Of a DNA stretch of 64,000 nt, positions 14,567 to 56,873 are shown in pieces (positions within the stretch are counted from its first letter, which is position 1; each line of letters starts with the position of its first letter). This stretch comes from Spironucleus salmonicida (lineage: Eukaryota). The notes below the pieces were generated by a model. That model ran no database searches. It was not told the origin of the DNA and saw only the letters and a program-made list of their open reading frames with translations. The DNA is taken from contig NC_090601.1 in NCBI RefSeq assembly GCF_000497125.1, forward strand, positions 248,001 to 312,000, in the 5' to 3' direction. A program made the translations under genes and the position numbers.

Positions 14567-14950
14567 ATGTTCGGTATCGCTCAAAAAACAACTATTTAAC
14601 AAGAAGTGTAACAACCACAGTCCAAAGAACATCACACACTTTACTAAATTGAGTAGTTCTACAATTCATTTTTATCCAAAAATTTACTACAACTGCAGCA
14701 GCAACAGCAAACAATCGCCGAAAGGATTTCACAAGCGCTCTACATGATCGAGCTGTGTGATCTATCGAAGGCCAAACTCAAGCCGTAACCCATGCCAGAT
14801 TTGTAATCCTTAGTAGACGCGTCGGCGCTGAACTCAATTTCAGAGTACCTAGAATTTCTGAAATCTCACGGAACCTTCTAGCGCGGCACGTTTAGCGCAC
14901 ACCTGGCGCACTTCCAGAAGAGGCTGCAGAAGTTGTTGACGGTAGAATGA
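14567..14950 (+). CDS. Hypothetical protein, 127 aa
   Basis: ATG 14567 to TGA 14948; converges on alpha-COP with a 14-nt gap. Confidence 0.65.
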
Positions 14951-14964
14951 TATTATAATTTTGC

Positions 14965-17900
14965 TCACTCAACGACCCCGCCCTCGCACACAGCGCAGAC
15001 CTGGCCCTCCTCGCCGCCGCTGCCGCAGCACTGACACTCGAACTTGCATACTACTATTTTCATCGTCTGGAAATTGACGGAAAAGTCAAAGTCCGTGACA
15101 ATCTCCTCGCCGCCCTTACAGTGCAGATACTGTTGTGCCTTCTCTTCGTACTCGGCAGATTTGAGCTGCCGCCCGACCTGCTGCAACTCGTAGCCGCACA
15201 TGCGCGCTAAATTACCAAAGTTATTCTTTTTGAGCTTCACACATGCAGATTTGAGCGCTTTTGCCCTATGTTGTGGGAGCAACGACTGCTGAGCAAAAAT
15301 AAGTAGGAGTGATGCAAGCTGTCGTGGTTCTTGCACCTGCTAGCGCATGATTTCGGCCATAAGGCCCCGAATGTAAGCGATAGAAAGGTACTGGTTTTGT
15401 TGATTCAGATTCAGGAATTTATACTAAATAAAGGCCGTTTTGAAAGATTCCAATGATACTGTGAAGTTTCCTTACGTTGTTTGGTCGATCGCCTGCTTGA
15501 ATAGAGTTTCAGTCGATTTTGCATCAAATTAGAGTTAATTATTATTGTTCTTAGCTTTTTCGATAATGTTCTTGACTACTGGCGTTGGAGACAATCCAGT
15601 TAGCCTAAATACTTAAGAATTTGGGTTTAATAAATCTGGGAGGTTACTATCCGTATGAGAAGAGCCTTCTGAAGACCAATTGTCTTATTCATTCGTTTTT
15701 TACTATTATTCTGGTAATTTATGATCTAATTATTCTGGTTCTTCCTTGTCGTCAGACCATTAGCCGTTGTTCTCAATCGGATCCATAGCAATCTCTTCAA
15801 TGGGCTAGAGTTCTTCCACTGGAAGATTTATTTTCCAGTTTTTAAGTTAGTTCTTGCGCATCGGTATTGGCAGAGCTTTTCCCTATTTTAATAGTTTTTC
15901 ATCTAGTTTATCTGCATCAAGAACTTCATACATTATATTACGAGACTCTGCAAAAACCTAGGCTGCTGCAGTTAAGCCACAATCGTGTAATGTAATTAAA
16001 AACTCTTTATTATCACCCATCATCATTGATGCGTTAAATCTTTACTAAATAGAACAATTGCTATAATTTAATGGTTCATTTGAGCTATTTAAAACATTTA
16101 TATAAGCCTGTTTTTCACAGCTTGAATATTAAAAGGCTTTACGCCACTGCTGCTACTTTTCACATTCAGTAATATATTCAGGAATGAATTATGGTAATAC
16201 TGAATCAGGAATTTCACCTAAATCGATACTTAACTTCTATTTTAATAATATATTACTTTCAGGTACTAATTATAAAGCCTCTTTATTAAAGCAACAACTC
16301 ATAAGCTTACCTACTAGAGCATTGCCTAAATTGGACTTCTTTACTCTTTTGAGTAATATCTAAACATCCCCTGTTCTATCATCTGCGATAGCAGTCATAA
16401 GGCCACAAACTCTGGAATCGAACTCCATAGCAAAAGGTTCGCAATTTTAATCTAATAATAACATTTATTAGCCTAATACCTATTGTATAAACAAAATCTT
16501 GTTGAGAGATGTAATAACACCAGATATATCTTTACTAGGACAAAGATATAAAACATGAGTAGCATTAGTAAAAACAAGTGTTTATCTTGGTGAAGATTCA
16601 AAACCTCTACCTAAATTACCAAAGCACATAGATAAAATCTAAGAAGATGATTTAAAAGACGAAATCATCTTATAATTTCTATCTAAAATGAAAGCAGACG
16701 AAAAAGATCTGATGCCAATGAAACTTTCAGTAGAAAACGCAAAGCCTCGAGGTGAGAATGGCAATGATAACTATTATTTTACAATAATAATGTCATCTTG
16801 TATTTATACAACATCTATATCACCTTTATCATAACACAATAGACACTCATTTGATTCGAAACCATTAATTAAAAATGTACTTACCTTAGTTAATTAAATC
16901 TTACTAATAACAGCGACTCCATCAGTTGAAGGAGTTCCTATGTTTAGCTATCCATTAATAACAAATGCTACTTGCGTTTTATTTATTTTGATAATATTAG
17001 ATTCTGTTTGAAAAGGTACAGAGGCTTAAGAAGCCAACGACATTAATGTGCATGCCGTTTTATTTACTCCATCATCATATGCAAGTACTATTGGATAAGG
17101 TTCGCCTATATTTAAAAGTTATTATGGTATTAACACTCTTTTTCCAGCTCCGAATGATCCAGATCTCGCTACCTATGATGTAACTTTATTGTATTTTTAA
17201 TCGTTTGAGTTAGTAATATTTACGGATTGTAAAATCCCATTTTTGATAAAATATGATTATCCTTTATTTTCAGTTGAAGCAATGAACTAATTATCTAAAA
17301 TGTTAAAAATAATAAGTCCTTAATCATGGCCTGCTGCCCATAAAGATTACTTTGGATGCTCAGATAAACACCAAAATCGTGTTGGCATTGAATTTTATGG
17401 TTTAATACCATAGTCCTGACAAGTTAAATTTCCAATATATGTCTTAGACTTTTATTCGTAAACTCTAATAGTACCATCAGATGAAGCTGATACAACCACA
17501 TTATCTTTACCTACTTCCACAGCATTAACATTACCACTGTGACCAGTCAATGTACTATGAGTATATAAAGTAGCATCTATTCCTAGAATTTCATCTTTTT
17601 CTGGCTTTCCTCTTAACAACCTCCATTCTCTTACAGAATAATCATCTGAAGATGAATATAGTGAATCATTTTCACCCCAAGATACCCAATTAACACCTCT
17701 TGTGTGAGATTCTCCATTAATTGATATCGATAATGTGCATTAAGGCAAGTTCAAAACTTATTATAACGTCTTTTCTACTATATTTTTCTTCAAACCTACA
17801 GAACGACTTATCTTTGATAAATCCCAAACCCTAACCGTTGAATCTAATCCTGCAGTAGCAAGCAAATCATCTCTTGGGTGGAACTTGGCACACATTGCAA

Positions 17901-25961: not shown

Positions 25962-28439
25962 ATGACACATAGAAATATATTTTTTGCAGCAAACATCCAG
26001 AAATCAGGTCTGAAGACAAGCTGTCAATTCGCACAGTTCAAGATTATTCTAATAACCGACTGCAGCGTGTAGTACGAATCGAAATCGACCGTCCTAGCGA
26101 CCTCGAGCCCCACTTTTGCTATTGAAGTGAACTACCAGATTTCACCAAACGTGCCTGTTCTGATCTTGGAGCTTCTCACGCTCACGCAACAAAATGAGGC
26201 ATTCATCCCCGGAGAAATTGCGTATTACCACACCGCTGACACGATCAACTTCGAGCGCGAGGACATCCAGCGGCTCGAATTCGTCTCAAAAACTTCCAAA
26301 ATCGTAGCGGACATCACTATAACGCAGAAGACGTACCCGTATTTCGTACGGTTTCCGCTCATAGAGCTCAACTTCGATAGCGTGAAAATGAAACTCTCAA
26401 ACCTCTCTTTCCTGCAGTTTCTGGCACTGGAAGTGCAGTCTGCAGATGTCAAAATGCTCAAATTTTTCGGCTCCAAAACGTGGAATTCGCTCGAAAACCA
26501 GATCCCATTCTCCGTTGGCGTGCTGCTCAAAATCATTTTCGTCGTGAACATCCTAGGGCGACAGCATCGCATCACGCTCGTCTCGGTGCGAATCAGCACC
26601 AACATGGTCGATGCGATGAAGGGGCAGCTGTTTAACATCCAGGACATCTCGGTGAACCTGCCGCCGGAGTTCTACTTCCTGGTCGATTTAATGGCGTTCG
26701 CGCAGCTGAATGGCGAGGATACGGTCATCATAAATGATATAGCGTTTAAGCTGAGCAGTGTGAACTCGTTCGGAGCGCTGGAACGCTACTGTGTGGCCAA
26801 GGGAGCTAAAATTTCAGATCACAATTTAAGCTATTTCAACGGCTTTAAGTAGGCTTCTGAGCCGGAAAAAGCTGTTAAAAAGGTATATGACTAAGAAGTT
26901 CAGATGATCGACGACTTTATTCAGGTTATTCACTTTTATAAGCAATTGAGCTTCAGTGGGAGCGTTTTCGTATTTTTAGATGGCATTGTACACGAAAAAA
27001 CGGTTATGCAGTCATTTAAGGACTTGTAAAATAAATAAAAAGCTATTTGTATGATTTAGCCATTTACGGGATAACGGGATCATGCTTTTATCGTTCTGAA
27101 TAGGGGAAAAATCAACCCATAGGCCATAGTACAAACTACAGATGTGGGAACTGGTAATTTGGCGATTATAAAAATAAAAGATCCAGGAAATTACATTTAA
27201 ATATTTTCATCATGCAATTAACGAAATTTTACTAAGCTTTTTGTGAATAATCAAAAATCGTTGGTATCTAACTGGAAGGATATGAAGTTAAATTGTATGG
27301 TTTATGTCAGCGGAAGTAATTTCCGTGAGAAAGCTGTGATGGTGACCACGAAGCAGTTGCAGGCGAATGTGAACACGGGGTACGTCCAGCTGAAGGTGAT
27401 GCAGCATGTATGCATGAACGTGTTTCTACAGGACCAGGTATACGGGGAGAAGCACCAGGTCGGGCCGCCGCTGGTCTCTGAGGGGCTATTGAAGCTGAAG
27501 GCACGGGAGAACGCCAACTTCGACCCCGCAATGGAATTCAGCGGGATGGACCTGTCTCACATGGACCGCTACATCGAGTCGGCACTCGCACCGTTCGACG
27601 AGGGCTATGCGCATGACTACTTTGGTACCCGGGTGCGGAACCCCATCTTCGTGCAGCCAGCGCCCTTGCTGGCATCCTACATCGATATGCTGTGCACCAT
27701 CATCGAGAATGAGCGCCTAGAACAAATTCGCGTGGCGCAAGAGCGACGCGCTATGGAGGAGGCTGAGCGCGTGCGGATCCTCGCCGAGACGAAGGCCGCA
27801 GAGGAGCTGGAGCGGCAGCGCATTGCCGCGGAGGCCGCCGCTGCCGCCAGCAAGCTGACACCCGAGCAGGAGCGGGAGCAAGCCTTGACCAGCCGGAAGC
27901 AGGAGGCCTACGAGCGCAGGAAGGCGGAGGCCGAGCGGCTGGACCACCAGGTCCAGAAGTCCCTGGAGGACAAGCAGCGCCAGCTCGAGCTGGAGAAGGA
28001 GCTGCTCCAGATGAAGCTGGCCCTCAAGAAGGAGCGTAACCTCAAGTTCCAGCAGCAGTAGATTCAGTTCTCCATCAATACCAAGGGATACATCTACCAG
28101 AGCTTCTACAATGACGTCCAGCGCTCTGATGCGCCCGCGGTGGAGGTGCGACTGCCGCGCAAAGCCCACATACAGCCGGCAAGCTTGATTGTGGAGGTTA
28201 TGGAGCCCGAGATGAAGCTAGTCCAGAAGCAGGCGCCCATCCAGCCGCCTCCCAAGGCGGGAACGTTGGCACAGATCCGGAAAGCGGGCAGGTCGCGCAT
28301 CCTGTAGCCCGCCACCTCCTTCGTGGCGATTCCGGTGGGACAATCGCCTTAGACGCGGCGGTGTGTGAGCAGCATCGAGCAGATCCGGGCGCTGAGCCCC
28401 TACGGCATGAAGTCGCGCCCCCGAGTGGGCGTAATGTGA
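25962..28439 (+). CDS. Hypothetical protein with coiled-coil, 825 aa; 3' part lies in the left palindrome arm
   Basis: One frame joins ORF-track pieces 26127-26852 and 27243-28061 when TAR=Gln; ends at TGA 28437. Confidence 0.75.
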
Positions 28440-28588
28440 TTTGGATTTTGTTTGTAAACGCTGGTATATGTATTATTAGAAATTTCGTAAAAACCAAAAA
28501 CCTCCCTAACATACTTGTGCAGTATACCACAACAGTTCTGTTGTAACATCTGGACACTTCCAGGTTCCATTTACAACCCACTCTAAAA

Positions 28589-29131
28589 ATGATTTTCCTG
28601 GCACTGCAAACCTAGCAGACCGTTGCCATCGTCGGCACTGGATACAGCCTGCAGACAACCGTGAGCCTGCAGGACTCGAGGTTCCTGCTGGACCATCCGG
28701 TGAACCTGAACCTGAGCTTCATGGTCAGGAAGACCACCTGGGTTTTCCAGGCAACCGCAGTCATCGGCCCCGACGGGGTGGTGCACCATGAGTTCCTATG
28801 CGAGCAGGATCCATCTCTCGACGAGTGCGTCCGCATGATGCACCTGATGCAGACGGCGGAGTGCGTCATCGTTGTGGGGGTCTTCCAGAAGCTCACCGCC
28901 TAGTCGCTATTGATGGCATATTAATATGACTAGTCGCTGGCCTCCGCCAACTACAGCGTGCCAAGCTACGTCTGGATCATCGTGGCTGTCGTGGTCGCGG
29001 TCTTCGCGCTGGGTGTGCTGAGCTACTTCCTGAAGAAGAAGCAGACCCAGCTCACCAAGGAGCTGGGGGAGATCCAGCACCGGGTAGCGGAGCACAGGTC
29101 CATGATGGAACCCAAGGCCGTATACTTCTGA
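28589..29131 (+). CDS. Small type I membrane protein, 180 aa (copy 1)
   Basis: Starts MIFLALQ; TM segment YVWIIVAVVVAVFALGVLSYFL followed by KKK; stop TGA 29129. Confidence 0.7.
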
Positions 29132-29172
29132 CCCTGAGTGAGCATGCGCTGTCACCAACCGCTGGAGCGAAA

Positions 29173-30048
29173 ATGCACCCGTTTGAGGTACGCTGCGAGA
29201 ACTCACCTCTGGACTCCCTCCCGTTGGAGGGCACCGCCGGCGCCGAATCAATCACCAGCATTAACCTCGTTAACGTCCGGATCGGGCCCCTCGACCTGCG
29301 GCCCTTCCGATCCCTCGCGCGGCTCCGGGCCACCGGCAGTACGCTGACGATAGCAAGCAGCTTCCTCCCGTTCTCGTTGCAGGAAGTCGAGCTGGGACCC
29401 TGCGACCTGCGGTTCGTTGACTTCCGCTTGCTCGCGCGGCTGCGGGACTTCTCGTCGGAGGGTAACCCCGTTTTCGTGAAGGACGGTGCAGTACCAGCAG
29501 GGGTGGTATGTATGAGCATCCGGAGTGCCGGTACCGTGACTCTAGATCTGAGGGCTGCCGGATCCCTCGCGCATCTGGACCTTTCGAGCAACGAGGCTGT
29601 ATCTGTGCGGGCCGTGCCCCAGTCGCTGCGGAGTCTGGCGGTCTGCAACGTCGGATTACTTGGCATCGACCTGTCACACAGTCTGATCGAGGACCTGGAC
29701 CTCTCTGACACTGGCCTAACAGCACCCCCCTTCCTGCCGCAAACGCTTGTACGGATGAGGTGCTCCGGCACGGTACCGGGGCTGGTGGTGGCTGGTCAGC
29801 GCCACCTCCAGGAGCTGGACGTCTCCTACTCGGCGGACGTGCACCTGGACCTTCGGGCTTCCCGGAGGCTGCGGACCCTAAATATCGAGGGGGCAGAGGT
29901 GGAGTTTGCCCATGGACACATCCCAGGGAACCTGACCACACTGCTCCGCTACTTGGGCCGCGAGGAGGCCTTCGCACCCTCGACGGGCTTTGGGCATCTG
30001 ATGGAAATGCCGGACCTTTACCGGAGACTGGTGGCGAGAGGGAAGTGA
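29173..30048 (+). CDS. Leucine-rich repeat protein, 291 aa (copy 1)
   Basis: Repeated LxxLDLSxN/LxxLxI units (LAHLDLSSN, IEDLDLSDT, LQELDVSYS, LRTLNIEG); AGTGA end. Confidence 0.8.
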   Translation: MHPFEVRCENSPLDSLPLEGTAGAESITSINLVNVRIGPLDLRPFRSLARLRATGSTLTIASSFLPFSLQEVELGPCDLRFVDFRLLARLRDFSSEGNPVFVKDGAVPAGVVCMSIRSAGTVTLDLRAAGSLAHLDLSSNEAVSVRAVPQSLRSLAVCNVGLLGIDLSHSLIEDLDLSDTGLTAPPFLPQTLVRMRCSGTVPGLVVAGQRHLQELDVSYSADVHLDLRASRRLRTLNIEGAEVEFAHGHIPGNLTTLLRYLGREEAFAPSTGFGHLMEMPDLYRRLVARGK

Positions 30049-30057
30049 GAGCATTCG

Positions 30058-32487
30058 TCACATCGCGCTGAGCAGGTTCAGGTACACCTCCATCTCCTGC
30101 AGCGCCTTCGCCAACTCCCGCTTGCCGCTGACGATCGCGTTCGCCATCACTGCCTCGCGCCCGTGACCCTTCTGCACTGCAACCCCGCGGCGGCCAAACC
30201 CCTGGATGGCCTCCTCTTCCCAGCGGTCGTAGCTCTCAGCCCGCTGCTCGACTGGGGAGCGCTCTCCGTACCCATACTCCGCGACGATGCAGAGAACGTC
30301 GTTTTTGCTCACGCCGCCAACCTCAGCTGCGATCTTGATGGCTGTGAGCCACCCGAGTCCCGCGGTGCGCCGGAACGCATCCGCGATGATAAACTTGTTA
30401 TGCGTGTCAATGGCACGGGGGCGCAGGTGGAGGTACTTGGCCTGTATGCTCTGTCCGGCGCACTGGTAGCACACATCGCACAGGATCTGGGGCTGGTGCT
30501 CCGCTGGTTGCTGAGTCTATGCAAAGAAGTAGCAGAACTCCTTGAGGCTGGCGGAGCAGAAGCCGCAGGTGAAACCGAAGCGCGGTGGAAGCGGGCTCTC
30601 GCGGTATGGCTGGCTTGGGATGGTCTACTTGAGCACGAGGCGGTCATCGTTGATGAGCCGGTGGGCCCCCAGAAAGTCATACAACGCCCGTGCCCCACGG
30701 TAATCGAGGCCGAGGAACTCCAGGCATGGCGAGAAGCGCAGGTGGATGTGTGGCAGAGCACGGTATGTGCAGATTAGCAGGTTGCGGTCCATCAGGAACT
30801 GGTCCCAGTCCGGCGGCGGGCCACAGGTGGCGAAGAAGTCGCGCTCGAACTGGGATACACCGGCGGGTGAGAACCAGGTAGGGTCCTGCTGCAATAGTTT
30901 GCGGCGCTCGGCCTGCACCGGAGGGCGCAGGTACACGTCATCCTGCAGCTGGCGGGCGAACTTAGACTCCCCATAGGCGTAGCGTACGCTGGATCGGCCA
31001 AGCGGCTGCTCCTCCGCCAAGAGCTGGAAGGGCATGGGCTCGTTGTGGAGGATGGCGATGCTCTCGTTCACGTTGCAGGTGATGGTGAAGTCCAGCTTGC
31101 TGAAGTAGCGGATGTAGAAGTTGACGAGGTTCTCGTCCTTCTTGCCCCGCTTCGAGCTGTCGCGGTACACCCCCTACTGCTTTCCGCAGAAAGGTTGGCC
31201 CGCAAGCATGACCCCGCTGGTGCCGAGCACTGCGAGGTGGCTGTGCAGCTCCCCATTCTGATCGATGAATTGCTGCTGCTGGATGATCTGCTGGATGGGC
31301 ACGTTGCTCTGCCGGAAGCTCTGAGCGCGCACCAACCGCTCACGGTCGCCACCCATAAGCCGGCTGTTGTTGAGAATGCCGCCGTCCTGGTTGTAGCTCT
31401 CGAACCCGCGCACGATGTTGCGGGAAATCTGATGGCGGTTGGCTGGCTTGTTCTCGGCCTGGCGCATCTTGCACTGCCAGGCGTGGACGAACTTTTGCAG
31501 CTCCGACTGCTGCTAATTGATCTGGAACTCATCTGATTTCTTAGCCTTGCAAAACTTCGCCTGGATGCGCTCGATCTCCACCTCCTGCACGGACGTAAGG
31601 TAGTCATAGGGGTCCAGTAGCTGGTTGAAGAAGTGCGAGTCCTGCACGAAGCGCGGCGGGAGAATCAGCGCCTACTGCTGGATGCCTTGCCAGTATATGT
31701 CATCCATGAAATCGTCCAGCTCGCGCGTGTTGTTCCCCACCTGGCGCTGGCGCACGGCGAGGAAGTCCTTGATGTTCATCACGAAGTCAAACTCTGGCGG
31801 CGTGCAGCGCGCGTGGACCAGCGCGTTCTTGCGGTCGTCGGGCTTCTCCACCAGCCGCAGGAAATACTTGTTGGTCCGCAGCACGTCTACGAACTGGATC
31901 TACTTGCCTTGGCGGAGCGCCGCGAAGTCCTCGGATACCGGCGGCAGGAAGGTTTCGGCTCCGCGGAGGACGTAGGTCGCATCCTCAGGGAACTCGACCA
32001 CCTCACCGCGCAACTGCAGCACCTGGGAGGTGAGCTCCTGAACGGCGTCTGGCTCCAGGCCTACGAAGCAGAAAGAGTGGAGGGGGATCAGGTTGTGCTG
32101 CTCGAGCACAGCGTACACGCTCAGATACAGCCGCCGGAACTCGTCTGACGTGAGGTCGTCGATGCTGAGGGCCTGCTTCTAGAAGTGGTGGTAGAACCCG
32201 AATACCTCGGCGAGGATGAGCTGCAGCGCCCCGTCCTTCTCGGTGTCGAAGAACATGAAGCGAGAGAGCACAGGCGCAAAGCGGGTGGGCTGCTGGGCTT
32301 TGAATGACAGCAACAGCATCATGCGGTTGTAGAAGGCGAAGACGGTGTCCAGGCACAGCTAGGGCGTGAGCAGGTGCGCGATCTAGTGCAGATCAGTCTT
32401 GAGGTACTTCAGCACCTGGTTTACAGAAGATTTCAGGTAGGCGCTCCAGTCCTCGAAGGACACGTCCGTGATGAGGCGGATCGACAT
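30058..32487 (-). CDS. SWI/SNF subunit SMARCC/Swi3-like, 809 aa (copy 1)
   Basis: Mirror of 36732-39161; SWIRM domain followed by a ZZ-like zinc finger. Confidence 0.75.
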
Positions 32488-32529
32488 TCGGAGCGGGTGT
32501 AAATGCGGTCACCGCGTGGTTGTCCAAGC

Positions 32530-32730
32530 TCACTCCAGCCGCCCCAGCAGGCACCCTGGGACCACACGCTACCCTGCCGCCACGTGTATCTCCTTCAGGA
32601 TACCGCACTGCTTCGCGCTCACGACAATCTCCAGCTTGCTGCTCACGATCCGGAACAGCCGCGCCCCCAGTTCCACTTTGTCACCTTTTATTATTGAGCA
32701 TTTTATAATTATCAATTGTTTTGGTGGCAT
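32530..32730 (-). CDS. Candidate stand-alone biotinyl-carrier-like ORF, 66 aa, formed at the inner arm edge
   Basis: MPPKQLIIIKCSII is fused in frame to [23 protein letters not shown]...GRLE*, identical to the transcarboxylase C-terminus. Expression unknown. Confidence 0.35.
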
Positions 32731-33140
32731 TCAGAGTCAATCAAATCATAACACTATTCTATTCCATATGACTCATATTATTTTACTAAGAAAATTGTAT
32801 TAAATCACCATAAATTCAGATTTTAAATTATATTACTACTATTATTATAATATATTTTATCATCCCTAATAGCAGAATGTTTAATATTACAATAGCATTA
32901 AACATATGTATTTCACTTTAAATTGACTAATTGAAATTTTTAATATCTACACCTCATCACGTTCAATATCATAATCAAATCTCAGATTTCATGTAATATC
33001 ACCTAGCATCATGTTATCATGACAGTGTTAATTAATTTTGTTATTTATTTCTAGTATTTCTTTTAAACTCTAGTTCCACTTCCTATTAATCTTGTAGACA
33101 TATTAATACGTCTACAACCTTCATCTACAATTCCCAAAAA

Positions 33141-36100
33141 ATGACTGAACTATTTTCAACCATATCTTCACTTGACTTTCTATCTTTTAAGTTCCATTCT
33201 ATATCCTACTCGAAATAACTTAAAAATGCATAGAACAACACCAAATAACTTTGTGGAATTACAACATTTAAATATATAAACCATATTCGTTCTTCATTCA
33301 ATTTTAATTTCCTTGGTGGATCATTGGGTTGTGCTGAATGCCAGAAATTGGTCCTTTCTGTCCGCGAAGCTAAAAAACTAAAAATTCCATTCGTATTAGA
33401 AACAGCATCTGGTGGTATTAGAATGCAAGAGGGAGCTGCTGCTTTATAGGCGATGCCCATTTTATGTGCAATATTAAGCGATTTACGACGATCTAATCTC
33501 GTTATTTGTATCTGTGGAGATCCCACCTTTGGCGGAGTTAGTGCCAGCATTTTAAATGAAGCCGATCTCATAATTGGTATAGAAGGAGCACGTGTAGGGT
33601 TTGCAGGGCGTGACGTGGTTAAAAATACTATTTTTGCAGGAAATTAAGTTGAAATGGATAAAACACTATAAAATGGGTTTTAAACGAGCGAGAGATGCGC
33701 ATAACTGCGCTTTTTCGATTTTTTCATCAAAAAAGATAATCTAGAAAATTTATTAGATTGTATACTATAACTGCAAAATAATAAAATACACAAATTCAGT
33801 ACCTTAGAACGGGACTCAGCAGAAATTTTCAGTAGCTTCAATTTTAAAGAATGCCGCTGCCGCACGCGTCCCTTACCAATTGACTATGCAAGAAATATTT
33901 TCACTCTTAAAAGTTAGCTTTGCTCTGACGGTCAAATTCTGATTTTTATTGCCCAGATAGACAATTAAAACTGCATTTTGATACTTACACACAAAGATGA
34001 TCTAACCGATCCCATCAGCGGTCTTGGCACTCCAATGGGATACCGTGCTGCTGGAAAAGCAGTGCTATTTGCTGGTAAAATGAATCTGCCTGTTTTTACA
34101 ATAGTAGACACATCTGGAGCTCTTCCTAGTCCATCAGCAGAGGATTAAAATTAAGCGTAAGCTATAAGTCAGTGCTTGACAGATTTTGCAAGGACTGGAA
34201 GTTTCATCGCGTCAGTTATTACTGGGGAAGGTGGTAGTGGCGGTGCAATTGCAATTGCAGCAGGAAATGCAGTTGGTGCGATCGAGAAAAGTTTTTATAA
34301 CGTTATTAGTCCTGAAGGTGGGGTTAGTATTTTGGGACGTAGTGTGTATAATAACGAGATCTAGAAGCAGAAAGATAATTTTGAAAATGATTGTTTACTG
34401 CTAGCTGAGAGCTAAAAATGTTATCCTGGTGATTTAGTTCAGCTAGGTATCCTTGATGTGATCATTAAAGGGTGGGATATTGATGAAAATAGTGATAAGT
34501 GCACTAGAACAAGCGCCAGGATAAAAGACTTCTTCTTAATGCAGTGCGATAACTATAGAATCGAAATTGAGCAAGACTGGGCTCAAATGAGACTGGAGCG
34601 TAATATTCGAATATTGTAGTATACATAACATAATTATGTTGAATTTTCTCAAAGTATAGGATAAATTCCATTAAAATTGATCAAATCAGTAGAATCAGTA
34701 GAATATGATTTAAATTTTAAGAAGGTTATGAGTTTTATTGCAAAGAAAACAATTGAAAATAAAGATAAGATAATTAAGCTTCCGTCAATGGATATCTAAG
34801 GTGAGGAATACTAATAGCAAATTAATTAATAATTAACTGCTGGTTATATTCTTAATACGAAAGGTCCAAAATAGGTCGTGGAATATCTAAATAATAGCAA
34901 TACTTTTTTTATTACTGATACTACATTTAGAGATGCACATTAATCCATTTTGGCTACTAGACTGAGGACTAAGGAATTACTTTAGGCTGCATAAATTTTA
35001 AAAAATACTGGATTATTAGACATTTAAGATTCAAAATTCTTTTCCGTAGAATGCTGGGGAGGAGCTACTTTTGATACTGCATATCGTTACTTATAAGAAG
35101 ATCCATGGGAGAGACTTCGAAAATTTAAAGAAATTTTACCAAATACTCTAACACAAATGCTTATTCGCGGAAAAAATGCGGTAGGATATACATCATATCC
35201 TGATAATGTTATAGAATAATTCATTATAAAATCTGCAGAGAATGGACTTGATGTTTTTAGAATTTTTGATGCATTTAATGATTTAAATTAAATGAAAATT
35301 TCGGTTGAGACTGTAATTAATAAGACAAATAAAATCTGTGAAATATGTGTATGCTTTACAGGATTTGACGATATTTATAATATAGCATATTATGTAGAAA
35401 AAATAATTGAAATTCGTAATAGATGGCCTGATGTGCATATAATATGCTTAAAAGATATGGCTGGTTTACTAAGGCCAGAATTAGCATTTGAATTCTTTTC
35501 AAATTTAATTAATGTGGCTGAACCATGCCCAATTCACTTTCATACTCACGATACATCAGGCTTATAATCCGCTACTATTTTAGAAGCAATTAAAGCTGGT
35601 GTAAAAATAGTTGATCTAGCATCAAATGCATTTTCAGCTTTGAGTTCTCAACCCCCACTACAATCTATAATTTTTAATAAACTTAGCGCTTAAGATTAAT
35701 AAAAATTAGAATACTATGATTAATTCTGGTCTAGACTTCGTAAGTAGTATTAATTTGAAGAAAATTCTTTAAATGCACCATAATCAAATGTTTATAATCA
35801 TTAAATGCCAGGTGGATAAATCAGTAATCTATATCAATAATGTATATAAATGGGCTTAGAAGAAAAATGGGAATAGTGTATGATTAACTATTAGGAAAGT
35901 AATGAATTTTTCGGGAGAATAATAAAAGTTACCCCTAGTAGTAAAGTTGTAGGAGATTTAGCCTTGTTTATGACGTAAAAATAGATATAAAAATAGGATT
36001 TATATAGATAGTAAGATTTACCTGTTAGTGTAATCTAATTCATTCAAGGAGACCTAGGTTTTCCTCATAAAGGATTTCCTCAGTAGGTTATGAATATAGT

Positions 36101-36689
36101 TTAATAGTAAGTTTAGGAGTAAAAAGTCAATTTAGATTTTTAGAATATATAATAAGAAGTTTAGAAATATTGTGAGAATCCAAAGATGGAAGAAATATTA
36201 TCATACATTCTTTATCCAGATGTTTTTAAGAATTACTGTCATTAAGTTAAGATAAATGGTAAAATTGAACAGTTACCCGTTGAATAATTTTTATATGGAA
36301 TGCGTATAGGATAGTAAATTTAATACGAAAATTATACTATTTAATTGGTACGAATACATCCTCCCGAATTTGACTTTACTAGAAAATGTGAATTTCTGGT
36401 TAATAATAACATTTATTATGTAAATATTAAGTAAGAAACTTAAAAACCTTAAACGCTAAAAATGGTGACTGGGCATGGCAATGAAGTTGAATGCGATGTT
36501 TTGGGCATTGTTTAGGGAGTATATGCTCAAAAAGGTGACAAAGTGGAACTGGGGGCGCGGCTGTTCCGGATCGTGAGCAGCAAGCTGGAGATTGTCGTGA
36601 GCGCGAAGCAGTGCGGTATCCTGAAGGAGATACACGTGGCGGCAGGGTAGCGTGTGGTCCCAGGGTGCCTGCTGGGGCGGCTGGAGTGA
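33141..36689 (+). CDS. Acetyl-CoA carboxyltransferase/pyruvate carboxylase fusion (single-chain transcarboxylase), about 1182 aa
   Basis: AccD motifs ([25 protein letters not shown]); AccA motifs ([19 protein letters not shown]); PC carboxyltransferase motifs ([54 protein letters not shown]); C-terminal biotinyl domain. An in-frame upstream ATG at 32877 is an alternative start. Confidence 0.95.
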
Positions 36690-36731
36690 GCTTGGACAAC
36701 CACGCGGTGACCGCATTTACACCCGCTCCGA

Positions 36732-39161
36732 ATGTCGATCCGCCTCATCACGGACGTGTCCTTCGAGGACTGGAGCGCCTACCTGAAATCTTCTGTAAAC
36801 CAGGTGCTGAAGTACCTCAAGACTGATCTGCACTAGATCGCGCACCTGCTCACGCCCTAGCTGTGCCTGGACACCGTCTTCGCCTTCTACAACCGCATGA
36901 TGCTGTTGCTGTCATTCAAAGCCCAGCAGCCCACCCGCTTTGCGCCTGTGCTCTCTCGCTTCATGTTCTTCGACACCGAGAAGGACGGGGCGCTGCAGCT
37001 CATCCTCGCCGAGGTATTCGGGTTCTACCACCACTTCTAGAAGCAGGCCCTCAGCATCGACGACCTCACGTCAGACGAGTTCCGGCGGCTGTATCTGAGC
37101 GTGTACGCTGTGCTCGAGCAGCACAACCTGATCCCCCTCCACTCTTTCTGCTTCGTAGGCCTGGAGCCAGACGCCGTTCAGGAGCTCACCTCCCAGGTGC
37201 TGCAGTTGCGCGGTGAGGTGGTCGAGTTCCCTGAGGATGCGACCTACGTCCTCCGCGGAGCCGAAACCTTCCTGCCGCCGGTATCCGAGGACTTCGCGGC
37301 GCTCCGCCAAGGCAAGTAGATCCAGTTCGTAGACGTGCTGCGGACCAACAAGTATTTCCTGCGGCTGGTGGAGAAGCCCGACGACCGCAAGAACGCGCTG
37401 GTCCACGCGCGCTGCACGCCGCCAGAGTTTGACTTCGTGATGAACATCAAGGACTTCCTCGCCGTGCGCCAGCGCCAGGTGGGGAACAACACGCGCGAGC
37501 TGGACGATTTCATGGATGACATATACTGGCAAGGCATCCAGCAGTAGGCGCTGATTCTCCCGCCGCGCTTCGTGCAGGACTCGCACTTCTTCAACCAGCT
37601 ACTGGACCCCTATGACTACCTTACGTCCGTGCAGGAGGTGGAGATCGAGCGCATCCAGGCGAAGTTTTGCAAGGCTAAGAAATCAGATGAGTTCCAGATC
37701 AATTAGCAGCAGTCGGAGCTGCAAAAGTTCGTCCACGCCTGGCAGTGCAAGATGCGCCAGGCCGAGAACAAGCCAGCCAACCGCCATCAGATTTCCCGCA
37801 ACATCGTGCGCGGGTTCGAGAGCTACAACCAGGACGGCGGCATTCTCAACAACAGCCGGCTTATGGGTGGCGACCGTGAGCGGTTGGTGCGCGCTCAGAG
37901 CTTCCGGCAGAGCAACGTGCCCATCCAGCAGATCATCCAGCAGCAGCAATTCATCGATCAGAATGGGGAGCTGCACAGCCACCTCGCAGTGCTCGGCACC
38001 AGCGGGGTCATGCTTGCGGGCCAACCTTTCTGCGGAAAGCAGTAGGGGGTGTACCGCGACAGCTCGAAGCGGGGCAAGAAGGACGAGAACCTCGTCAACT
38101 TCTACATCCGCTACTTCAGCAAGCTGGACTTCACCATCACCTGCAACGTGAACGAGAGCATCGCCATCCTCCACAACGAGCCCATGCCCTTCCAGCTCTT
38201 GGCGGAGGAGCAGCCGCTTGGCCGATCCAGCGTACGCTACGCCTATGGGGAGTCTAAGTTCGCCCGCCAGCTGCAGGATGACGTGTACCTGCGCCCTCCG
38301 GTGCAGGCCGAGCGCCGCAAACTATTGCAGCAGGACCCTACCTGGTTCTCACCCGCCGGTGTATCCCAGTTCGAGCGCGACTTCTTCGCCACCTGTGGCC
38401 CGCCGCCGGACTGGGACCAGTTCCTGATGGACCGCAACCTGCTAATCTGCACATACCGTGCTCTGCCACACATCCACCTGCGCTTCTCGCCATGCCTGGA
38501 GTTCCTCGGCCTCGATTACCGTGGGGCACGGGCGTTGTATGACTTTCTGGGGGCCCACCGGCTCATCAACGATGACCGCCTCGTGCTCAAGTAGACCATC
38601 CCAAGCCAGCCATACCGCGAGAGCCCGCTTCCACCGCGCTTCGGTTTCACCTGCGGCTTCTGCTCCGCCAGCCTCAAGGAGTTCTGCTACTTCTTTGCAT
38701 AGACTCAGCAACCAGCGGAGCACCAGCCCCAGATCCTGTGCGATGTGTGCTACCAGTGCGCCGGACAGAGCATACAGGCCAAGTACCTCCACCTGCGCCC
38801 CCGTGCCATTGACACGCATAACAAGTTTATCATCGCGGATGCGTTCCGGCGCACCGCGGGACTCGGGTGGCTCACAGCCATCAAGATCGCAGCTGAGGTT
38901 GGCGGCGTGAGCAAAAACGACGTTCTCTGCATCGTCGCGGAGTATGGGTACGGAGAGCGCTCCCCAGTCGAGCAGCGGGCTGAGAGCTACGACCGCTGGG
39001 AAGAGGAGGCCATCCAGGGGTTTGGCCGCCGCGGGGTTGCAGTGCAGAAGGGTCACGGGCGCGAGGCAGTGATGGCGAACGCGATCGTCAGCGGCAAGCG
39101 GGAGTTGGCGAAGGCGCTGCAGGAGATGGAGGTGTACCTGAACCTGCTCAGCGCGATGTGA
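36732..39161 (+). CDS. SWI/SNF subunit SMARCC/Swi3-like, 809 aa (copy 2)
   Basis: One frame with TAG=Gln. SWIRM: PTWFSPAGVSQFERDFF...RNLLICTYR...ALYDFLGAHRLIN. ZZ-like: CGFC...LCDVCY. N-terminal DGALQLILA and LVH segments resemble the BAF155/170 N-terminal module. Confidence 0.75.
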
Positions 39162-39170
39162 CGAATGCTC

Positions 39171-40046
39171 TCACTTCCCTCTCGCCACCAGTCTCCGGTA
39201 AAGGTCCGGCATTTCCATCAGATGCCCAAAGCCCGTCGAGGGTGCGAAGGCCTCCTCGCGGCCCAAGTAGCGGAGCAGTGTGGTCAGGTTCCCTGGGATG
39301 TGTCCATGGGCAAACTCCACCTCTGCCCCCTCGATATTTAGGGTCCGCAGCCTCCGGGAAGCCCGAAGGTCCAGGTGCACGTCCGCCGAGTAGGAGACGT
39401 CCAGCTCCTGGAGGTGGCGCTGACCAGCCACCACCAGCCCCGGTACCGTGCCGGAGCACCTCATCCGTACAAGCGTTTGCGGCAGGAAGGGGGGTGCTGT
39501 TAGGCCAGTGTCAGAGAGGTCCAGGTCCTCGATCAGACTGTGTGACAGGTCGATGCCAAGTAATCCGACGTTGCAGACCGCCAGACTCCGCAGCGACTGG
39601 GGCACGGCCCGCACAGATACAGCCTCGTTGCTCGAAAGGTCCAGATGCGCGAGGGATCCGGCAGCCCTCAGATCTAGAGTCACGGTACCGGCACTCCGGA
39701 TGCTCATACATACCACCCCTGCTGGTACTGCACCGTCCTTCACGAAAACGGGGTTACCCTCCGACGAGAAGTCCCGCAGCCGCGCGAGCAAGCGGAAGTC
39801 AACGAACCGCAGGTCGCAGGGTCCCAGCTCGACTTCCTGCAACGAGAACGGGAGGAAGCTGCTTGCTATCGTCAGCGTACTGCCGGTGGCCCGGAGCCGC
39901 GCGAGGGATCGGAAGGGCCGCAGGTCGAGGGGCCCGATCCGGACGTTAACGAGGTTAATGCTGGTGATTGATTCGGCGCCGGCGGTGCCCTCCAACGGGA
40001 GGGAGTCCAGAGGTGAGTTCTCGCAGCGTACCTCAAACGGGTGCAT
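39171..40046 (-). CDS. Leucine-rich repeat protein, 291 aa (copy 2)
   Basis: Translation identical to 29173-30048. Confidence 0.8.
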   Translation of the reverse strand: MHPFEVRCENSPLDSLPLEGTAGAESITSINLVNVRIGPLDLRPFRSLARLRATGSTLTIASSFLPFSLQEVELGPCDLRFVDFRLLARLRDFSSEGNPVFVKDGAVPAGVVCMSIRSAGTVTLDLRAAGSLAHLDLSSNEAVSVRAVPQSLRSLAVCNVGLLGIDLSHSLIEDLDLSDTGLTAPPFLPQTLVRMRCSGTVPGLVVAGQRHLQELDVSYSADVHLDLRASRRLRTLNIEGAEVEFAHGHIPGNLTTLLRYLGREEAFAPSTGFGHLMEMPDLYRRLVARGK

Positions 40047-40087
40047 TTTCGCTCCAGCGGTTGGTGACAGCGCATGCTCACTCAGGG

Positions 40088-40630
40088 TCAGAAGTATACG
40101 GCCTTGGGTTCCATCATGGACCTGTGCTCCGCTACCCGGTGCTGGATCTCCCCCAGCTCCTTGGTGAGCTGGGTCTGCTTCTTCTTCAGGAAGTAGCTCA
40201 GCACACCCAGCGCGAAGACCGCGACCACGACAGCCACGATGATCCAGACGTAGCTTGGCACGCTGTAGTTGGCGGAGGCCAGCGACTAGTCATATTAATA
40301 TGCCATCAATAGCGACTAGGCGGTGAGCTTCTGGAAGACCCCCACAACGATGACGCACTCCGCCGTCTGCATCAGGTGCATCATGCGGACGCACTCGTCG
40401 AGAGATGGATCCTGCTCGCATAGGAACTCATGGTGCACCACCCCGTCGGGGCCGATGACTGCGGTTGCCTGGAAAACCCAGGTGGTCTTCCTGACCATGA
40501 AGCTCAGGTTCAGGTTCACCGGATGGTCCAGCAGGAACCTCGAGTCCTGCAGGCTCACGGTTGTCTGCAGGCTGTATCCAGTGCCGACGATGGCAACGGT
40601 CTGCTAGGTTTGCAGTGCCAGGAAAATCAT
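40088..40630 (-). CDS. Small type I membrane protein, 180 aa (copy 2)
   Basis: Mirror of 28589-29131. Confidence 0.7.
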
Positions 40631-40779
40631 TTTTAGAGTGGGTTGTAAATGGAACCTGGAAGTGTCCAGATGTTACAACAGAACTGTTGTGGTATACTGC
40701 ACAAGTATGTTAGGGAGGTTTTTGGTTTTTACGAAATTTCTAATAATACATATACCAGCGTTTACAAACAAAATCCAAA

Positions 40780-41877
40780 TCACATTACGCCCACTCGGGG
40801 GCGCGACTTCATGCCGTAGGGGCTCAGCGCCCGGATCTGCTCGATGCTGCTCACACACCGCCGCGTCTAAGGCGATTGTCCCACCGGAATCGCCACGAAG
40901 GAGGTGGCGGGCTACAGGATGCGCGACCTGCCCGCTTTCCGGATCTGTGCCAACGTTCCCGCCTTGGGAAGCGGCTGGATGGGCGCCTGCTTCTGGACTA
41001 GCTTCATCTCGGGCTCCATAACCTCCACAATCAAGCTTGCCGGCTGTATGTGGGCTTTGCGCGGCAGTCGCACCTCCACCGCGGGCGCATCAGAGCGCTG
41101 GACGTCATTGTAGAAGCTCTGGTAGATGTATCCCTTGGTATTGATGGAGAACTGAATCTACTGCTGCTGGAACTTGAGGTTACGCTCCTTCTTGAGGGCC
41201 AGCTTCATCTGGAGCAGCTCCTTCTCCAGCTCGAGCTGGCGCTGCTTGTCCTCCAGGGACTTCTGGACCTGGTGGTCCAGCCGCTCGGCCTCCGCCTTCC
41301 TGCGCTCGTAGGCCTCCTGCTTCCGGCTGGTCAAGGCTTGCTCCCGCTCCTGCTCGGGTGTCAGCTTGCTGGCGGCAGCGGCGGCCTCCGCGGCAATGCG
41401 CTGCCGCTCCAGCTCCTCTGCGGCCTTCGTCTCGGCGAGGATCCGCACGCGCTCAGCCTCCTCCATAGCGCGTCGCTCTTGCGCCACGCGAATTTGTTCT
41501 AGGCGCTCATTCTCGATGATGGTGCACAGCATATCGATGTAGGATGCCAGCAAGGGCGCTGGCTGCACGAAGATGGGGTTCCGCACCCGGGTACCAAAGT
41601 AGTCATGCGCATAGCCCTCGTCGAACGGTGCGAGTGCCGACTCGATGTAGCGGTCCATGTGAGACAGGTCCATCCCGCTGAATTCCATTGCGGGGTCGAA
41701 GTTGGCGTTCTCCCGTGCCTTCAGCTTCAATAGCCCCTCAGAGACCAGCGGCGGCCCGACCTGGTGCTTCTCCCCGTATACCTGGTCCTGTAGAAACACG
41801 TTCATGCATACATGCTGCATCACCTTCAGCTGGACGTACCCCGTGTTCACATTCGCCTGCAACTGCTTCGTGATCAC
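40780..41877 (-). pseudogene. 5'-truncated copy of the 25962-28439 gene; could encode about 346 aa from ATG 41820
   Basis: Only the 3' part is duplicated, and an in-frame TGA lies just upstream of the arm edge. Confidence 0.65.
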
Positions 41878-41975
41878 TGTGTTCTCACTGTAATTATTCT
41901 AATTTCATTGGTTAATCTATATTAATATTTTAATCAAAATATAGTAAATAGGTATAAAACTTCATGAAATCAGAA

Positions 41976-43211
41976 TCATTAGATCATCGGTATTTCAATT
42001 TCTGGTTCATTAGTAGATTGATCTAAAGCGATTAATTTTCTATTATTTACATATTTAATAACTTTCAAAATAATATACCATACTATTGCTAATGGGATAC
42101 TTGATATTAGTAAAATAGAATATGTTGACAGTGTGAATCTAAATTTTTTTAAGCTGCTGATTGGTTTATATAAGTAGCTGTAATTTTAATAATATTTAGT
42201 CTAAAAATTAGGACAATATCCTGTAACATAAATCAAAAAATTATCTACATCCAAAATTACGTTATATAGGCCCTATGAATGCCCATTTTTAAATTATACT
42301 TATTTACAAAACTCACCCCTACATAATTTTAACTAATCACTACACATAAATATATGGTTTACTAAATTTATTTATTTATTATTAAACTTTAAATTGATGT
42401 CAGTGTAATTAGCTAAATCTATATTCTAAGTTTGTGTTAAATTAAGTCTCTTATTTTAAATTATTAAAATTTAATTAATTATCTTTATAATAGAATCTTT
42501 ATTATCTTCTAGTATTACTTCATTTTTATTTAAAACACCTTTGAATAGTTTACTTTTAAAAAGTAATTATTAATCTTAGGCTTAGATTTAATTATAAGTA
42601 ATTTGGTCATAGGTTTTATAAAAATAATTCTCAATATTAGTTTTCCTAAGGTAAAATTAAGGGGAAAATATATGATAAAAAGGAATTCTATTTTAACCAT
42701 AATAATTATAAGGATAATCAATAGAATCTACATCAAGTAATTTGTTTGGTCTTGTTGATGTAATATCTAGTGAAGAACTATTCTGAAAAACCAAATAATC
42801 AGTTTCGAATAAGCCAATGTTGTTTTATACTGAAAAAAAATATGTCCCAACTGTATTTTTGACTATATCAACATTAAATGTTGTCGTACAGTTGATTTCT
42901 GGAAAAATAATATGAGGTTATTTGCAGAAAATTAATTTTGAAGAAAATTAAGTTTTATCATAGGTTACTGTCAAAAGTGTAGGATTAACTGCAATCTTTA
43001 TACCTGAATTTTACAGTGACTGGTTAAGGCAGTTGTTTTAATAGCAAATTTAACTACACAAATACACAAGTTTTATTTATTTATCAGGTAAAGACGAATA
43101 CTATAACTTGTAGTCTAAATCCCAACAGGGTTATATAGTATATTCGATATACTCAGTTTATTCAGACCTAAATATCATACTTTATTCTAAAAATTCTATG
43201 AAAATTAACAT
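41976..43211 (-). CDS. Type I membrane protein, 411 aa
   Basis: Fully open frame; C-terminal TM segment YSILLISSIPLAIVWYIIL. Confidence 0.7.
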
Positions 43212-50628: not shown

Positions 50629-51612
50629 ATGAAATCACTGCTTACCCCGCTGCACTCTATGCTTACAAATCTAAAGCCAAAAATTGGGTCACCAATTACT
50701 ATCACAGTAAAGCCTTTATTCAGGACCCTCCAGCTTGCATTGTCACTATTTTCCACAATAGATAATTATCCTAAAACAAACCAAATTTTTGACCTAGGTC
50801 TAGCATTTGACCCAGACACGGAGCTATATACACCATAAGCTCAATTAACCCTACATTTTAACGAAAGTTTTCGGAAACTCCGTCTTTCTAGACATTTTTA
50901 AAATGAGCTTATTAACGCTGAATTTGTCGAAACTGCAGATGTAGGATTTGCATAATCAGAAGGGAAATCAGGATTACTATTTTTCTTCTCAGCTACGACG
51001 CGTTTCCTACTCAAACAGATTAAAAATTCAGAGCTTGCAATTCTCACCAAAATATCTCGAGAATACTGCGATCATGTATGTCAAAACTCATTCATAATCC
51101 CTTACTATACCGTTTTCACTCTTAAAATAAACGGCGAAAACTATCACTTTACACTTATGGATAATGCATTTTTAGGCGATATAAAGTATAAATATGACCT
51201 AAAAGGCTCAACGGCAGGTAGAACTTCCAAGCCCAACGAATCGACCATGAAAGATAACAATTTAGACCGGAAATTCTCTCTAGGCCTGTACCGCCGCGAA
51301 TTCGGCCACCAACTCGCCAGCGACATCGAAAAGCTTACCAAATGGGGCCTCCTGGACTACTCAATGCTGATTGGGGTGTTCGCCGGAGACAGAAAAAACT
51401 ACTAAATTCCAGTGATCCAGAGCATTCAAATAAGCGAAACTGAGTACATTTCATTCGCAATTATCGACATTCTGACGGTGTACACGCGCCGGAAGACCCT
51501 GGAGCGTTTTTTCAAGCAGTTTACGAGCGATCTGAAGCAAATTTCGGCTCAGAAACCGCAGGTGTACGGGCAACGGTTCGAGGAACGCATGCTGCGCGTC
51601 TTTGCAAAGTGA
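50629..51612 (+). CDS. Phosphatidylinositol phosphate kinase (PIP5K family), 327 aa
   Basis: SEGKSG.FF, YDLKGST..R, KDNN, LDYSMLIG, IIDILT.Y, ISA..P..Y..RF. Confidence 0.92.
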
Positions 51613-51625
51613 TGTTATCGCCAGT

Positions 51626-51949
51626 TCAGATTTCCTCGAGGTCGATCACGGCCCCCTGCGGCAGCGCATTCGCTGCAGTTTCGCGCTCCCAGCGAAGCTT
51701 ATCGCGCGCGACGGTTCCGTAGATCGTGGAGGTTCTGCGCGCGTGCCGGGACAAGATTTTTGGGATCTGCGATTTCGTGATCAAAAGGAGGCTGTTTTCA
51801 GGTTCGGGGGCGGCCTTTAGCGAAATCCTGTCAGTGCCGTAAACGACCTTTTGGGTGATGTTTTACGTCGTTTTCGGCCTTTTGATAAGCTGCGTTTCGG
51901 GGCTGTTCAGCTCGAATTGGACCGACTCGAATTACGTGGACTTTTTCAT
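51626..51949 (-). CDS. Hypothetical protein, 107 aa
   Basis: Open frame convergent with PIP5K, 13-nt gap. Confidence 0.55.
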
Positions 51950-53268: not shown

Positions 53269-53411
53269 TAATCTTATATAATATTATTTGTATTATAATT
53301 AGCTATTGCATTTCATAATTTATTATGTCGATGAAGTCAATTCTGCATATTTTCCCTCCCCAGCCATCACATTTAAAACAATCATCCAGTTAAGCTTATC
53401 ACAATGTTTGT

Positions 53412-54851
53412 ATGCAAATTACGGATTATTGCACAAAAACAGCGAATCTTTCACTATCGACGCCACTTTTCAAGCTACCAGCTTTCTCAACAATCCCGCA
53501 AACGAATGACCGCTTTGTATTCGACGAGATTCTCTGCGAACCCCAACTTTTTGCTGACATCCACTCCCCAAATACTCCCCAAACGCTGTAGCCTAATCCA
53601 ATCCAAAATTCGATTGACAAAATAGCCTCAAAAATCGTTTCCTAGGCCCACCACGGTACCTGTAAGCTCATTATCAACTATGGTTCGGCGTGCTCAGGGC
53701 ACGGTATACTGGCGTTCGGCACCTACCCATAAAATGACCCTCAAATCGGCCTTGTATGGTCTATTTTGGACGCACTTAGCGACTGCGAAATCCGGTGCTT
53801 CTCACTCGAGAATGGAGGCAAGATTCGCGATCTGTTGGACGACACACAGCTCGGGACAGTGCTGAAGCCCAAGACGCAGTTCAACCTCATCACGCCGGAA
53901 ACGCTAAACGTGGATCTGTGCGGTCTTCAGAACACGACTTCCGGCCGCCTTAAGCTCGCGAATTCGCTCCACCAAAAGCGCCGAATTTTGGCCAAATATT
54001 AGCGCTTCGACCGAGTGGTCGACCGCTCTTCCGACGAGCAGTTTCCGATTCTCCAAAAAATCCACTCACAGCTCGGCCCACAAAACCACAACCTGGCGCT
54101 CGATCTCACACCCACAACTTTCGTGCTGTTATCGCCCAAAAATCGTCAAAATTCACAGATTTTGCTCATCGATTTCCCTGCTTGCTGTGCGAATTCCGGG
54201 CTTTAGGGATACACACTGAGTCCTCGAATGCACGAAAACTTGAAGATTCCGGTCGAGCTGAAAAGCTGTTTTCGGAGTGGTGCTAACTCACGAAATGGTG
54301 TGATTTCACGTGTTCTCGGGGGCTGTGTTCCGGGCATTTCTGATGGTGAAGTGGTGTAGATTTGCAGCGTGTAATTGAGCGATTTCGAGCGTGTTTCAAG
54401 TGGTCAAATTTTGAGAATGGCTGGAATGTTCGACAAGAACGTTGTTGAACGATTTTTTGATGGTTTTGTGGCTGAAAAAAATCGAAAACGCGTCGAATCA
54501 AGTTTTAGTAATTAATAGATATAATAATAAGAAAAATAATTTACTTTTAATTTTGATCAGATCGAAAATTTTGACCAGGATGAAAACAGCATTATTGGGA
54601 AACACGGGTTTGATTTTAAGGATGCTACAAACCGTAGCATTGGATATAGCAACGACGAGACGGAGATAGTCGAAAAAATTGATATCTAGAGTTTAATGAC
54701 TGCTAAGGAATTATTGAAGGACGAGAGCAACGACGATGTGAGCGATGGAGATGATTGGGCTACTAACCTATTTAGAAGCAGTGAATGGCAGGTAGAAACC
54801 CAAGGAATATTAAAAAAAATGAAGATGTTCTTAGACTCGATCCAGATATGA
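53412..54851 (+). CDS. Degenerate kinesin-motor-like protein, 479 aa
   Basis: Kinesin motif order FVFDEI, NYGSACSGHG (P-loop position), KIRDLL, LIDFPA (DLAG position), VLGG; catalytic residues lost. Confidence 0.5.
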
Positions 54852-56357: not shown

Positions 56358-56873
56358 TCACTTTTAAGATTTCATAGCATTCAATCTGCTATTCCATGCT
56401 ACGTTAAGACCTGGTTCCTCCAAAATTGAATTAACTAAAATAAGTCTCTCATTGAGTTTTCTATCGTTAATCCATAATAGAGTTTTCTACTCCTAATTTA
56501 GTAAAACTGTACAATTTGTTGTTTTATGTGCTAATATATCTAACAGATTTCTTGGTACAACAGCTAAACCCTTCCTATTCACAAAATGAAAAGCAGAATA
56601 AATAGCAGAGTGAGAATTCATCATAGAAATGAAGTTTTCGTTAGTAATTTTTATATCTCCCTCTTTGGGCTATTTAAACCGCAGACCGCTAATCTTTGTT
56701 ACTTCTACAGATGGTTTTTGAGTAATAACCTTAGGAATAATAGCTACCTCGCCATAATGAGAGAACTCACCAGAACACATAGGTTCGAAGTCTGATATAT
56801 CAAAGTATGATTCTTCAGAATAAATAGTAGGAGCTAAAGGAGTAACTTAGGAATCAAAAGAGCAGTTCATCAT
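56358..56873 (-). CDS. Hypothetical protein, 171 aa
   Basis: Open frame ending in AGTGA. Confidence 0.65.

Follow-up and report, generated by a model that had tools for sequence, protein, structure and literature searches.

In the case of Drosophila duplicates, mutations and small indels have been reported to accumulate at block edges, where conversion is weak, so that less of a block can be recognised than is really there (Osada and Innan 2008, PMC2588116). Pairing has been described as ending through substitutions, insertions and large indels (Fawcett and Innan, PMC3924837). In the X-chromosome palindromes of primates, arm-to-arm conversion is GC-biased (PMC8981503), and in Drosophila inverted duplications associated with inversions have been attributed to staggered breaks (Ranz et al. 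2007, PMC1885836). In Spironucleus salmonicida, duplicated regions make up 19.2% of the genome, with a mean GC of 44.7% against 30.7%, and gene conversion has been suggested for its surface-protein regions (PMC9509377). The main text of that study appears to make no mention of edges, shoulders, indels or mid-gene GC switches, and on repeat edges in diplomonads we found nothing in the literature, supplements aside. In this study, we describe a near-perfect inverted duplication of S. salmonicida whose margins carry short shoulders; these are probably the eroded edges of an old duplicate kept by GC-biased conversion, and the locus adds a further case of a process already known.

The window, that is, the whole 64,000-nt stretch of DNA analysed, has a GC content of 34% and shows long open reading frames under translation table 6 only, one of which clusters with a named record from S. 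salmonicida. Its sole large repeat is an inverted pair, an island pair of 60% GC with a spacer of 3,840 nt, the exact cores of which (27347–32689 and 41872–36530) measure 5,343 nt and contain one internal mismatch (core identity 99.98%), a C at 28249 and a T at 40970, giving a Pro and a Leu codon, respectively, in gene A. In the left arm lie the 3' part of gene A, two more plus-strand genes, a minus-strand gene of 809 aa and a truncated copy of the 3' end of a carboxylase gene. Both arm edges cut through intact genes (gene A and the carboxylase fusion), a point absent from the initial annotation of this DNA, whose quoted letters at the outer and inner edges are as it gave them. Searches with four flank stretches and with two of the GC bumps described below returned no third copy of the arms or flanks; one 83-nt match of 81% identity was found on another contig. 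The features of the locus are as follows.

25962–28439, plus strand: gene A, an intact 825-aa open reading frame (code 6), with the outer arm edge at codon 462.
27313–27340, plus strand: left outer shoulder, gene A coding sequence, about 77% like the right shoulder.
27341–27346, plus strand: six nucleotides present on the left only, GGTGAC, the ancestral state, with a deletion in the right copy.
27347–32689, plus strand: left arm, exact core, a 5,343-nt unitig at about twice the depth.
32530–32730, minus strand: 66-aa open reading frame, 14 flank residues in frame with the last 52 of the carboxylase biotin domain.
32690–32701, plus strand: left inner shoulder, a 5-nt insertion (ATTAT) and then TGAGCAT, equal to 36529–36523; homologs are colinear with the right copy.
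32782–32824, plus strand: possible deeper remnant of carboxylase coding sequence, matching 36424–36383; suggestive only.
33141–36689, plus strand: intact fusion gene of acetyl-CoA carboxylase and pyruvate carboxylase (1182 aa) that runs into the right arm with its last 53 codons.
36530–41872, minus strand: right arm, exact core, carrying the 5'-truncated copy of gene A.
41820–40780, minus strand: truncated copy of gene A, a 346-aa open reading frame inside the right arm.
41873–41899, minus strand: right outer shoulder, a decayed remnant of gene A codons 451–459.
41976–43211, minus strand: gene E, a neighbouring single-copy gene, its stop 77 nt past the shoulder.

The inverted duplication is real and not an assembly artefact, as had been maintained from the sequence. 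In the short-read contigs of two runs, the arm has a depth of 20.5 against 12.2–12.8 in the flanks, and of 22 against 11.6–11.7, and all four arm junctions are present; in one run the left outer junction is a through contig and the right outer junction a loose end, and the spacer contig runs into the arm at its two ends. These runs possibly derive from the source sample and thus test the assembly, not a second isolate; the sequencing runs on record come from two studies of one organism. A misassembly, or pure chance at the outer and inner edges, might be argued from the single difference between arms of 5,343 bases and from the non-significant unanchored test of the outer flanks given below, but the doubled depth, the two forms of the outer junction, the entry of the spacer contig into the arm at each end and the significance of every anchored outer test make it exceedingly improbable. 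At the mismatched site, 28249/40970, the contigs of runs X1 and X3 carry C and those of X5 and X6 carry T, differences that merely hint at an unresolved or shifting site, because contigs drop variants.

At the outer edge, an indel of 6 nt followed by about 28 nt of diverged but alignable sequence had been proposed, and this is what we find. Past the 6-nt gap, 27313–27340 aligns with 41899–41873 with 22 of 28 columns identical (20 of 26 ungapped), that is, 26–28 nt at about 77% identity. Anchored extension, run with three scoring schemes against shuffled and genomic nulls, gave p values of 0.001–0.019 in all six tests, and the pair-HMM score exceeded all 400 nulls in six of six; the divergence of the shoulder is estimated at 0.28 (0.10–0.65). 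The unanchored local alignment that had been suggested as a check fails for the outer flanks (p = 0.135 against shuffles), because its search space is large. Past 27313 no homology is detectable (p = 0.26–0.97, and 0.76–0.83 in a second test), and a longer outer homology, built on ATGAAGTT and like matches, was discarded as lying at chance level.

Gene A matches no Pfam family and has no homolog at E ≤ 0.001, its sequence is present in the protein collection, and to judge from these searches its family is lineage-restricted. The same contig carries four full-length paralogs, of 22–27% identity, all of which retain the spacing of gene A across the outer edge, which indicates that the left copy is ancestral and that the 6-nt gap arose by deletion from the right copy. 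We also considered that gene A might itself be a fusion made at the junction, as a six-frame search at first matched the paralogs over residues 1–457 only; this was ruled out, since the paralogs are of full length and stay colinear through the edge. The residues of the right remnant are NNYSENTV--IT, against SNFREKAVMVTT in gene A, and each altered codon of the right shoulder alters its residue, as expected of a copy that has been freed. Its GC (9/27) is higher than that of the adjacent spacer DNA (17%), not significantly so (p = 0.10). The stop of gene E, 77 nt past the shoulder, caps any larger extent of the duplication unless DNA has been deleted. Two AGTGA motifs in the right shoulder were weighed as a selected poly(A) signal of gene E, this motif having been described as such a signal (PMC3916229), and the idea was rejected; the stop context of gene E, AATGA, ranks second in frequency (35 of 248 open reading frames), and AGTGA downstream is not biased towards either strand (9 vs 11 of 63).

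At the inner edge, where ATTAT (32690–32694) precedes TGAGCAT (32695–32701), the p value varies with the test, between 0.002 and 1.0. Anchored alignment (p = 0.20–1.0, and 0.14–0.16 on repetition) and a 160-nt pair-HMM (p = 0.15–0.21) are non-significant, a 50-nt pair-HMM gives p = 0.005–0.037, and the longest exact match after one gap, a statistic picked after the data had been seen, gives p = 0.002. Of the 5-nt indel and residual matches claimed here by the initial annotation, the 7-nt match TGAGCAT is thus probably real on the tailored tests (p = 0.002–0.04), the plain ones being non-significant, whereas GCATTCA lies at chance level (p = 0.38). The unanchored alignment suggested for this edge does pass, but through another segment, 32782–32824 against 36424–36383 (p = 0.0065 by shuffles, 0.016 by genomic pairs). 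Real windows score as well in 36 of 1572 and 33 of 1244 cases (about 2.5%), and the match is scoring-dependent, since other schemes choose another match or lose it. Lying 95–135 nt out, this segment could be a deeper inner remnant, a reading that we rate as possible rather than probable. It would also be conceivable that the outer shoulder is a true remnant while the inner matches are all chance, the inner edge then being the original breakpoint. The anchored tests (p = 0.14–1.0), the long pair-HMM and the chance level of GCATTCA agree with such a mixed case, but the short pair-HMM, the exact 7-mer and the second near-diagonal match further out do not, and we hold it to be quite improbable.

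The inner edge falls 53 codons before the end of the intact carboxylase fusion gene. Hexamita and bacterial homologs align without gaps there and are colinear with the right copy, so the 5-nt insertion belongs to the derived left copy; the inserted 5-mer recurs a few bases away in the same flank. The 66-aa open reading frame scores 33.6 bits as Biotin_lipoyl and its arm part alone 32.3, and the notion of a selected mini biotin carrier was abandoned, as the flank-derived residues contribute 1.3 bits only. Both open reading frames of truncated gene copies (66 aa and 346 aa) are found in public protein collections. As a separate observation, a contig of run X6 stops at window position 32708, 19 nt outside the left arm, and is followed by eight A letters; either the end of a plus-strand transcript or an artefact could explain this.

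The base composition of the genes that cross the edges changes within their coding sequence. In the carboxylase, fourfold-site GC is 78/384 (0.20) in the single-copy part and 24/29 (0.83) in the arm part, and in gene A it is 138/172 in the arm part against 19/58 just before it. The arm parts of five genes have values of 0.74–0.83, and two neighbouring single-copy genes have 0.15–0.18; in the intact genes just outside the arms fourfold-site GC is barely raised (4/10 and 7/22). The GC excess is thus confined to the arms regardless of gene identity, with the switch inside two genes at the edges. As these two genes are unrelated and switch exactly at the edges, an effect of expression or the recent copying of a GC-rich block is hard to invoke, and the mid-gene switch fits GC-biased conversion of the kind proposed for primate palindromes. 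Other GC-rich stretches were seen that are single-copy today. Codons 31–270 of gene A (window 26052–26771) have a fourfold-site GC of 84/110, similar patches occur in the paralogs of gene A in L084 (first 240 codons) and L087 (codons 180–400), and such patches are possibly relics of duplicates since lost. GC bumps of 45–55% at window 14600–15400, 51200–51900 and 53400–54400 have no second copy that we could find in the genome.

In a simple two-copy model, which assumes ordinary mutation rates and near-complete bias, the observed rise in GC requires that at least 0.8–1.2 neutral substitutions per site have elapsed, a rough estimate only, since with a bias of 0.9 the model falls short of 0.8 GC. 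Set against this, the shoulder divergence of 0.28 suggests that the shoulder was homogenised for much of the life of the arm; provided that the model roughly holds, its departure from conversion was late, a point in favour of erosion rather than of a scar dating from birth. The claim that the duplication is old is therefore upheld, mainly by the GC jump inside two genes, to which the shoulder adds; age is better shown by the rise in fourfold-site GC at the edge than by the shoulder on which that claim had leaned.

For comparison, we surveyed the repeat edges of eighty 10-kb stretches of the same contig (800 kb, about 6% of the genome) together with the window. From 1,646 raw matches, 68 were kept (at least 400 nt, at least 98% identity and a GC of at least 0.15, a floor set to exclude AAT microsatellites), and 69 edges with room on either side gave 56 distinct edges, including the two of the present locus. 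Both anchored scores reached p ≤ 0.02 at 20 of the 56; with near-perfect ends trimmed, 14 of 56 lay above all 150 nulls and p ≤ 0.05 was reached at 25 of 56. Once the present two and one duplicate are removed, 53 other edges remain, of which 11 have shoulders; these 11 belong to 9 of 42 locus pairs and are not fully independent because of nested families. Some exceed 100 nt, and at one surveyed edge 27 exact bases carry on past a 33-nt indel. None of the 11 starts with a gap, a count that is a floor, since gap-led shoulders are harder to detect, and indel borders are thus no general rule in this genome. Shoulders are found mostly in the less identical pairs (median 98.9% vs 99.5%, p = 0.02), whereas in pairs of at least 99.7% only 1 of 20 other edges has one, which fits the idea that fast-converting arms acquire shoulders mainly from indels. 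No link was seen between shoulders and arm GC among the surveyed edges (p = 0.33). Shoulders are hence ordinary in the genome, and what is unusual in the present locus is their occurrence on a near-perfect arm; a local indel barrier fits, in a sample of two that had been picked for that very pattern.

The surveyed region (G000:C6:312001-1112000, L003-L082) is dense in near-identical local duplications, mostly inverted, with a GC of 0.28–0.76 in the matched stretches, some of them nested and in up to four copies. It also holds AT-only microsatellite arrays of about 500–600 nt (L025:7810-8420, L074:9421-10000 and L081:6559-7043), and a 70% identical paralogous stretch at L007:682-958 and window 56358–56634 is common to the arms of another inverted repeat.

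The main alternative for the shoulders, in part a microhomeology reading that the initial annotation does not raise, is that they date from the birth of the duplication, as the product of template switching at pre-existing microhomeology or of replication-error indels near the junctions, in which case the duplication was never larger or its ends were never converted. The shoulders do coincide exactly with the two junctions that the rearrangement created, microhomeology and small indels are common at such places (19 of 57 human duplication join-points, PMC6902434), the inserted 5-mer is also found a few bases off in the same flank, as in templated insertions, and the intact genes past the edge show little GC excess. 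However, the outer shoulder extends for 26–28 nt behind a 6-nt gap, when the cases given in PMC6902434 measure 7–14 bp with gaps of at most 2 nt; with gaps of 6 and 5 nt, neither edge falls under the microhomeology definition used there (at least 5 bp, at least 70% identity, gap of at most 2 nt). Moreover, a shoulder that was never converted should show about one substitution per site instead of 0.28, and the long graded shoulders at other edges exceed the size of such junctions. We consider this origin unlikely and prefer the erosion of converted edges.

From the gene anatomy, the original gene order would have been A, B, C, D, carboxylase, E. A single old event may have copied a 5.4-kb segment, from the middle of A to the carboxylase 3' end, the inverted copy being placed beside the carboxylase 5' end, between it and E, and yielding an order a-b-c'-b'-d. 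Of the four edges, the left inner and the right outer would be the novel junctions, and it is at these that both shoulders and both indels lie. GC-biased arm-to-arm conversion would since have kept the arms identical and rewritten their codons, as the composition suggests, and would be weakest at the arm ends. Near these ends, the 6-nt deletion and the 5-nt insertion arose in the derived, truncated copies, as the polarity of both shows. Copying either indel into the intact gene would be damaging, because two residues of A would be lost or the carboxylase frame shifted, and repair in the reverse direction would have just 7–27 nt of homology past the gap; harmful copying and short reverse homology may thus have led the outermost bits to leave conversion and then decay, the shoulders being the last detectable step of this retreat. 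The proposal that the duplication was once larger holds in this sense for less than 1% of the arm length, about 27 nt at the outer edge and 7 nt at the inner one, and the proposal that indels bound the conversion tract holds here, where both indels lie on derived copies, and not at the other shouldered edges.

These observations lead us to a tentative suggestion, that of a ratchet locked by selection, whereby indels of truncated copies cannot be converted into working genes and the border becomes fixed. It is also possible, though we are doubtful, that this ratchet operates in the fastest-converting arms, where conversion would remove substitutions and shoulders would be left by indels alone (two of two edges here, against the 1 in 20 of the survey). 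If so, shoulder divergence set against the GC gain of the arm would date each retreat and would serve, across the genome of a diplomonad, as a clock of very strong GC-biased conversion. In a broader sense, a near-perfect repeat that might have been suspected of being an artefact or a recent copy is recast as old and actively homogenised, and the locus reveals at which point copying ends, together with the probable reason. The process itself and the GC-rich duplicates of S. salmonicida were already known; the practical novelty is that frequent shoulders (about one edge in five, in 800 kb) could serve to gauge how far tracts have retreated and how strong the GC bias is in a parasite whose alleles vary very little. 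What deserves further attention is that both indels map to the derived copies and that selection may have locked the border.

Regarding its origin, the locus resembles the Drosophila case of PMC1885836 in that an inversion is flanked by an inverted copy of once-unique gene-bearing sequence with truncated gene copies, and staggered breaks are a candidate route for the present duplication; the copies described there have diverged to about 88%, whereas the present arms have been kept identical. It shares with the template-switch junctions of PMC6902434 an imperfect likeness with small indels at novel junctions. The blocks of PMC2588116 are alike in their high identity in the middle and diverged edges, with substitutions and small indels shrinking the block, a pattern found here at the outer edge, where a single mismatch in 5,343 nt gives way to a shoulder of about 77%; the differences are a core of 99.98% identity, a shoulder of tens of bases, edges inside intact genes and a view from one genome alone. 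With the primate X palindromes (PMC8981503), in which inverted arms more than 99% identical enclose a spacer and exceed their flanks in GC, the locus has in common real inverted arms around a spacer and a GC contrast of the same sense, 46% vs 41% in those palindromes and about 60% vs 27% here. Unlike them, it has 5-kb arms on a protist chromosome, and its fourfold-site GC climbs from 0.20 to 0.83 within one gene.
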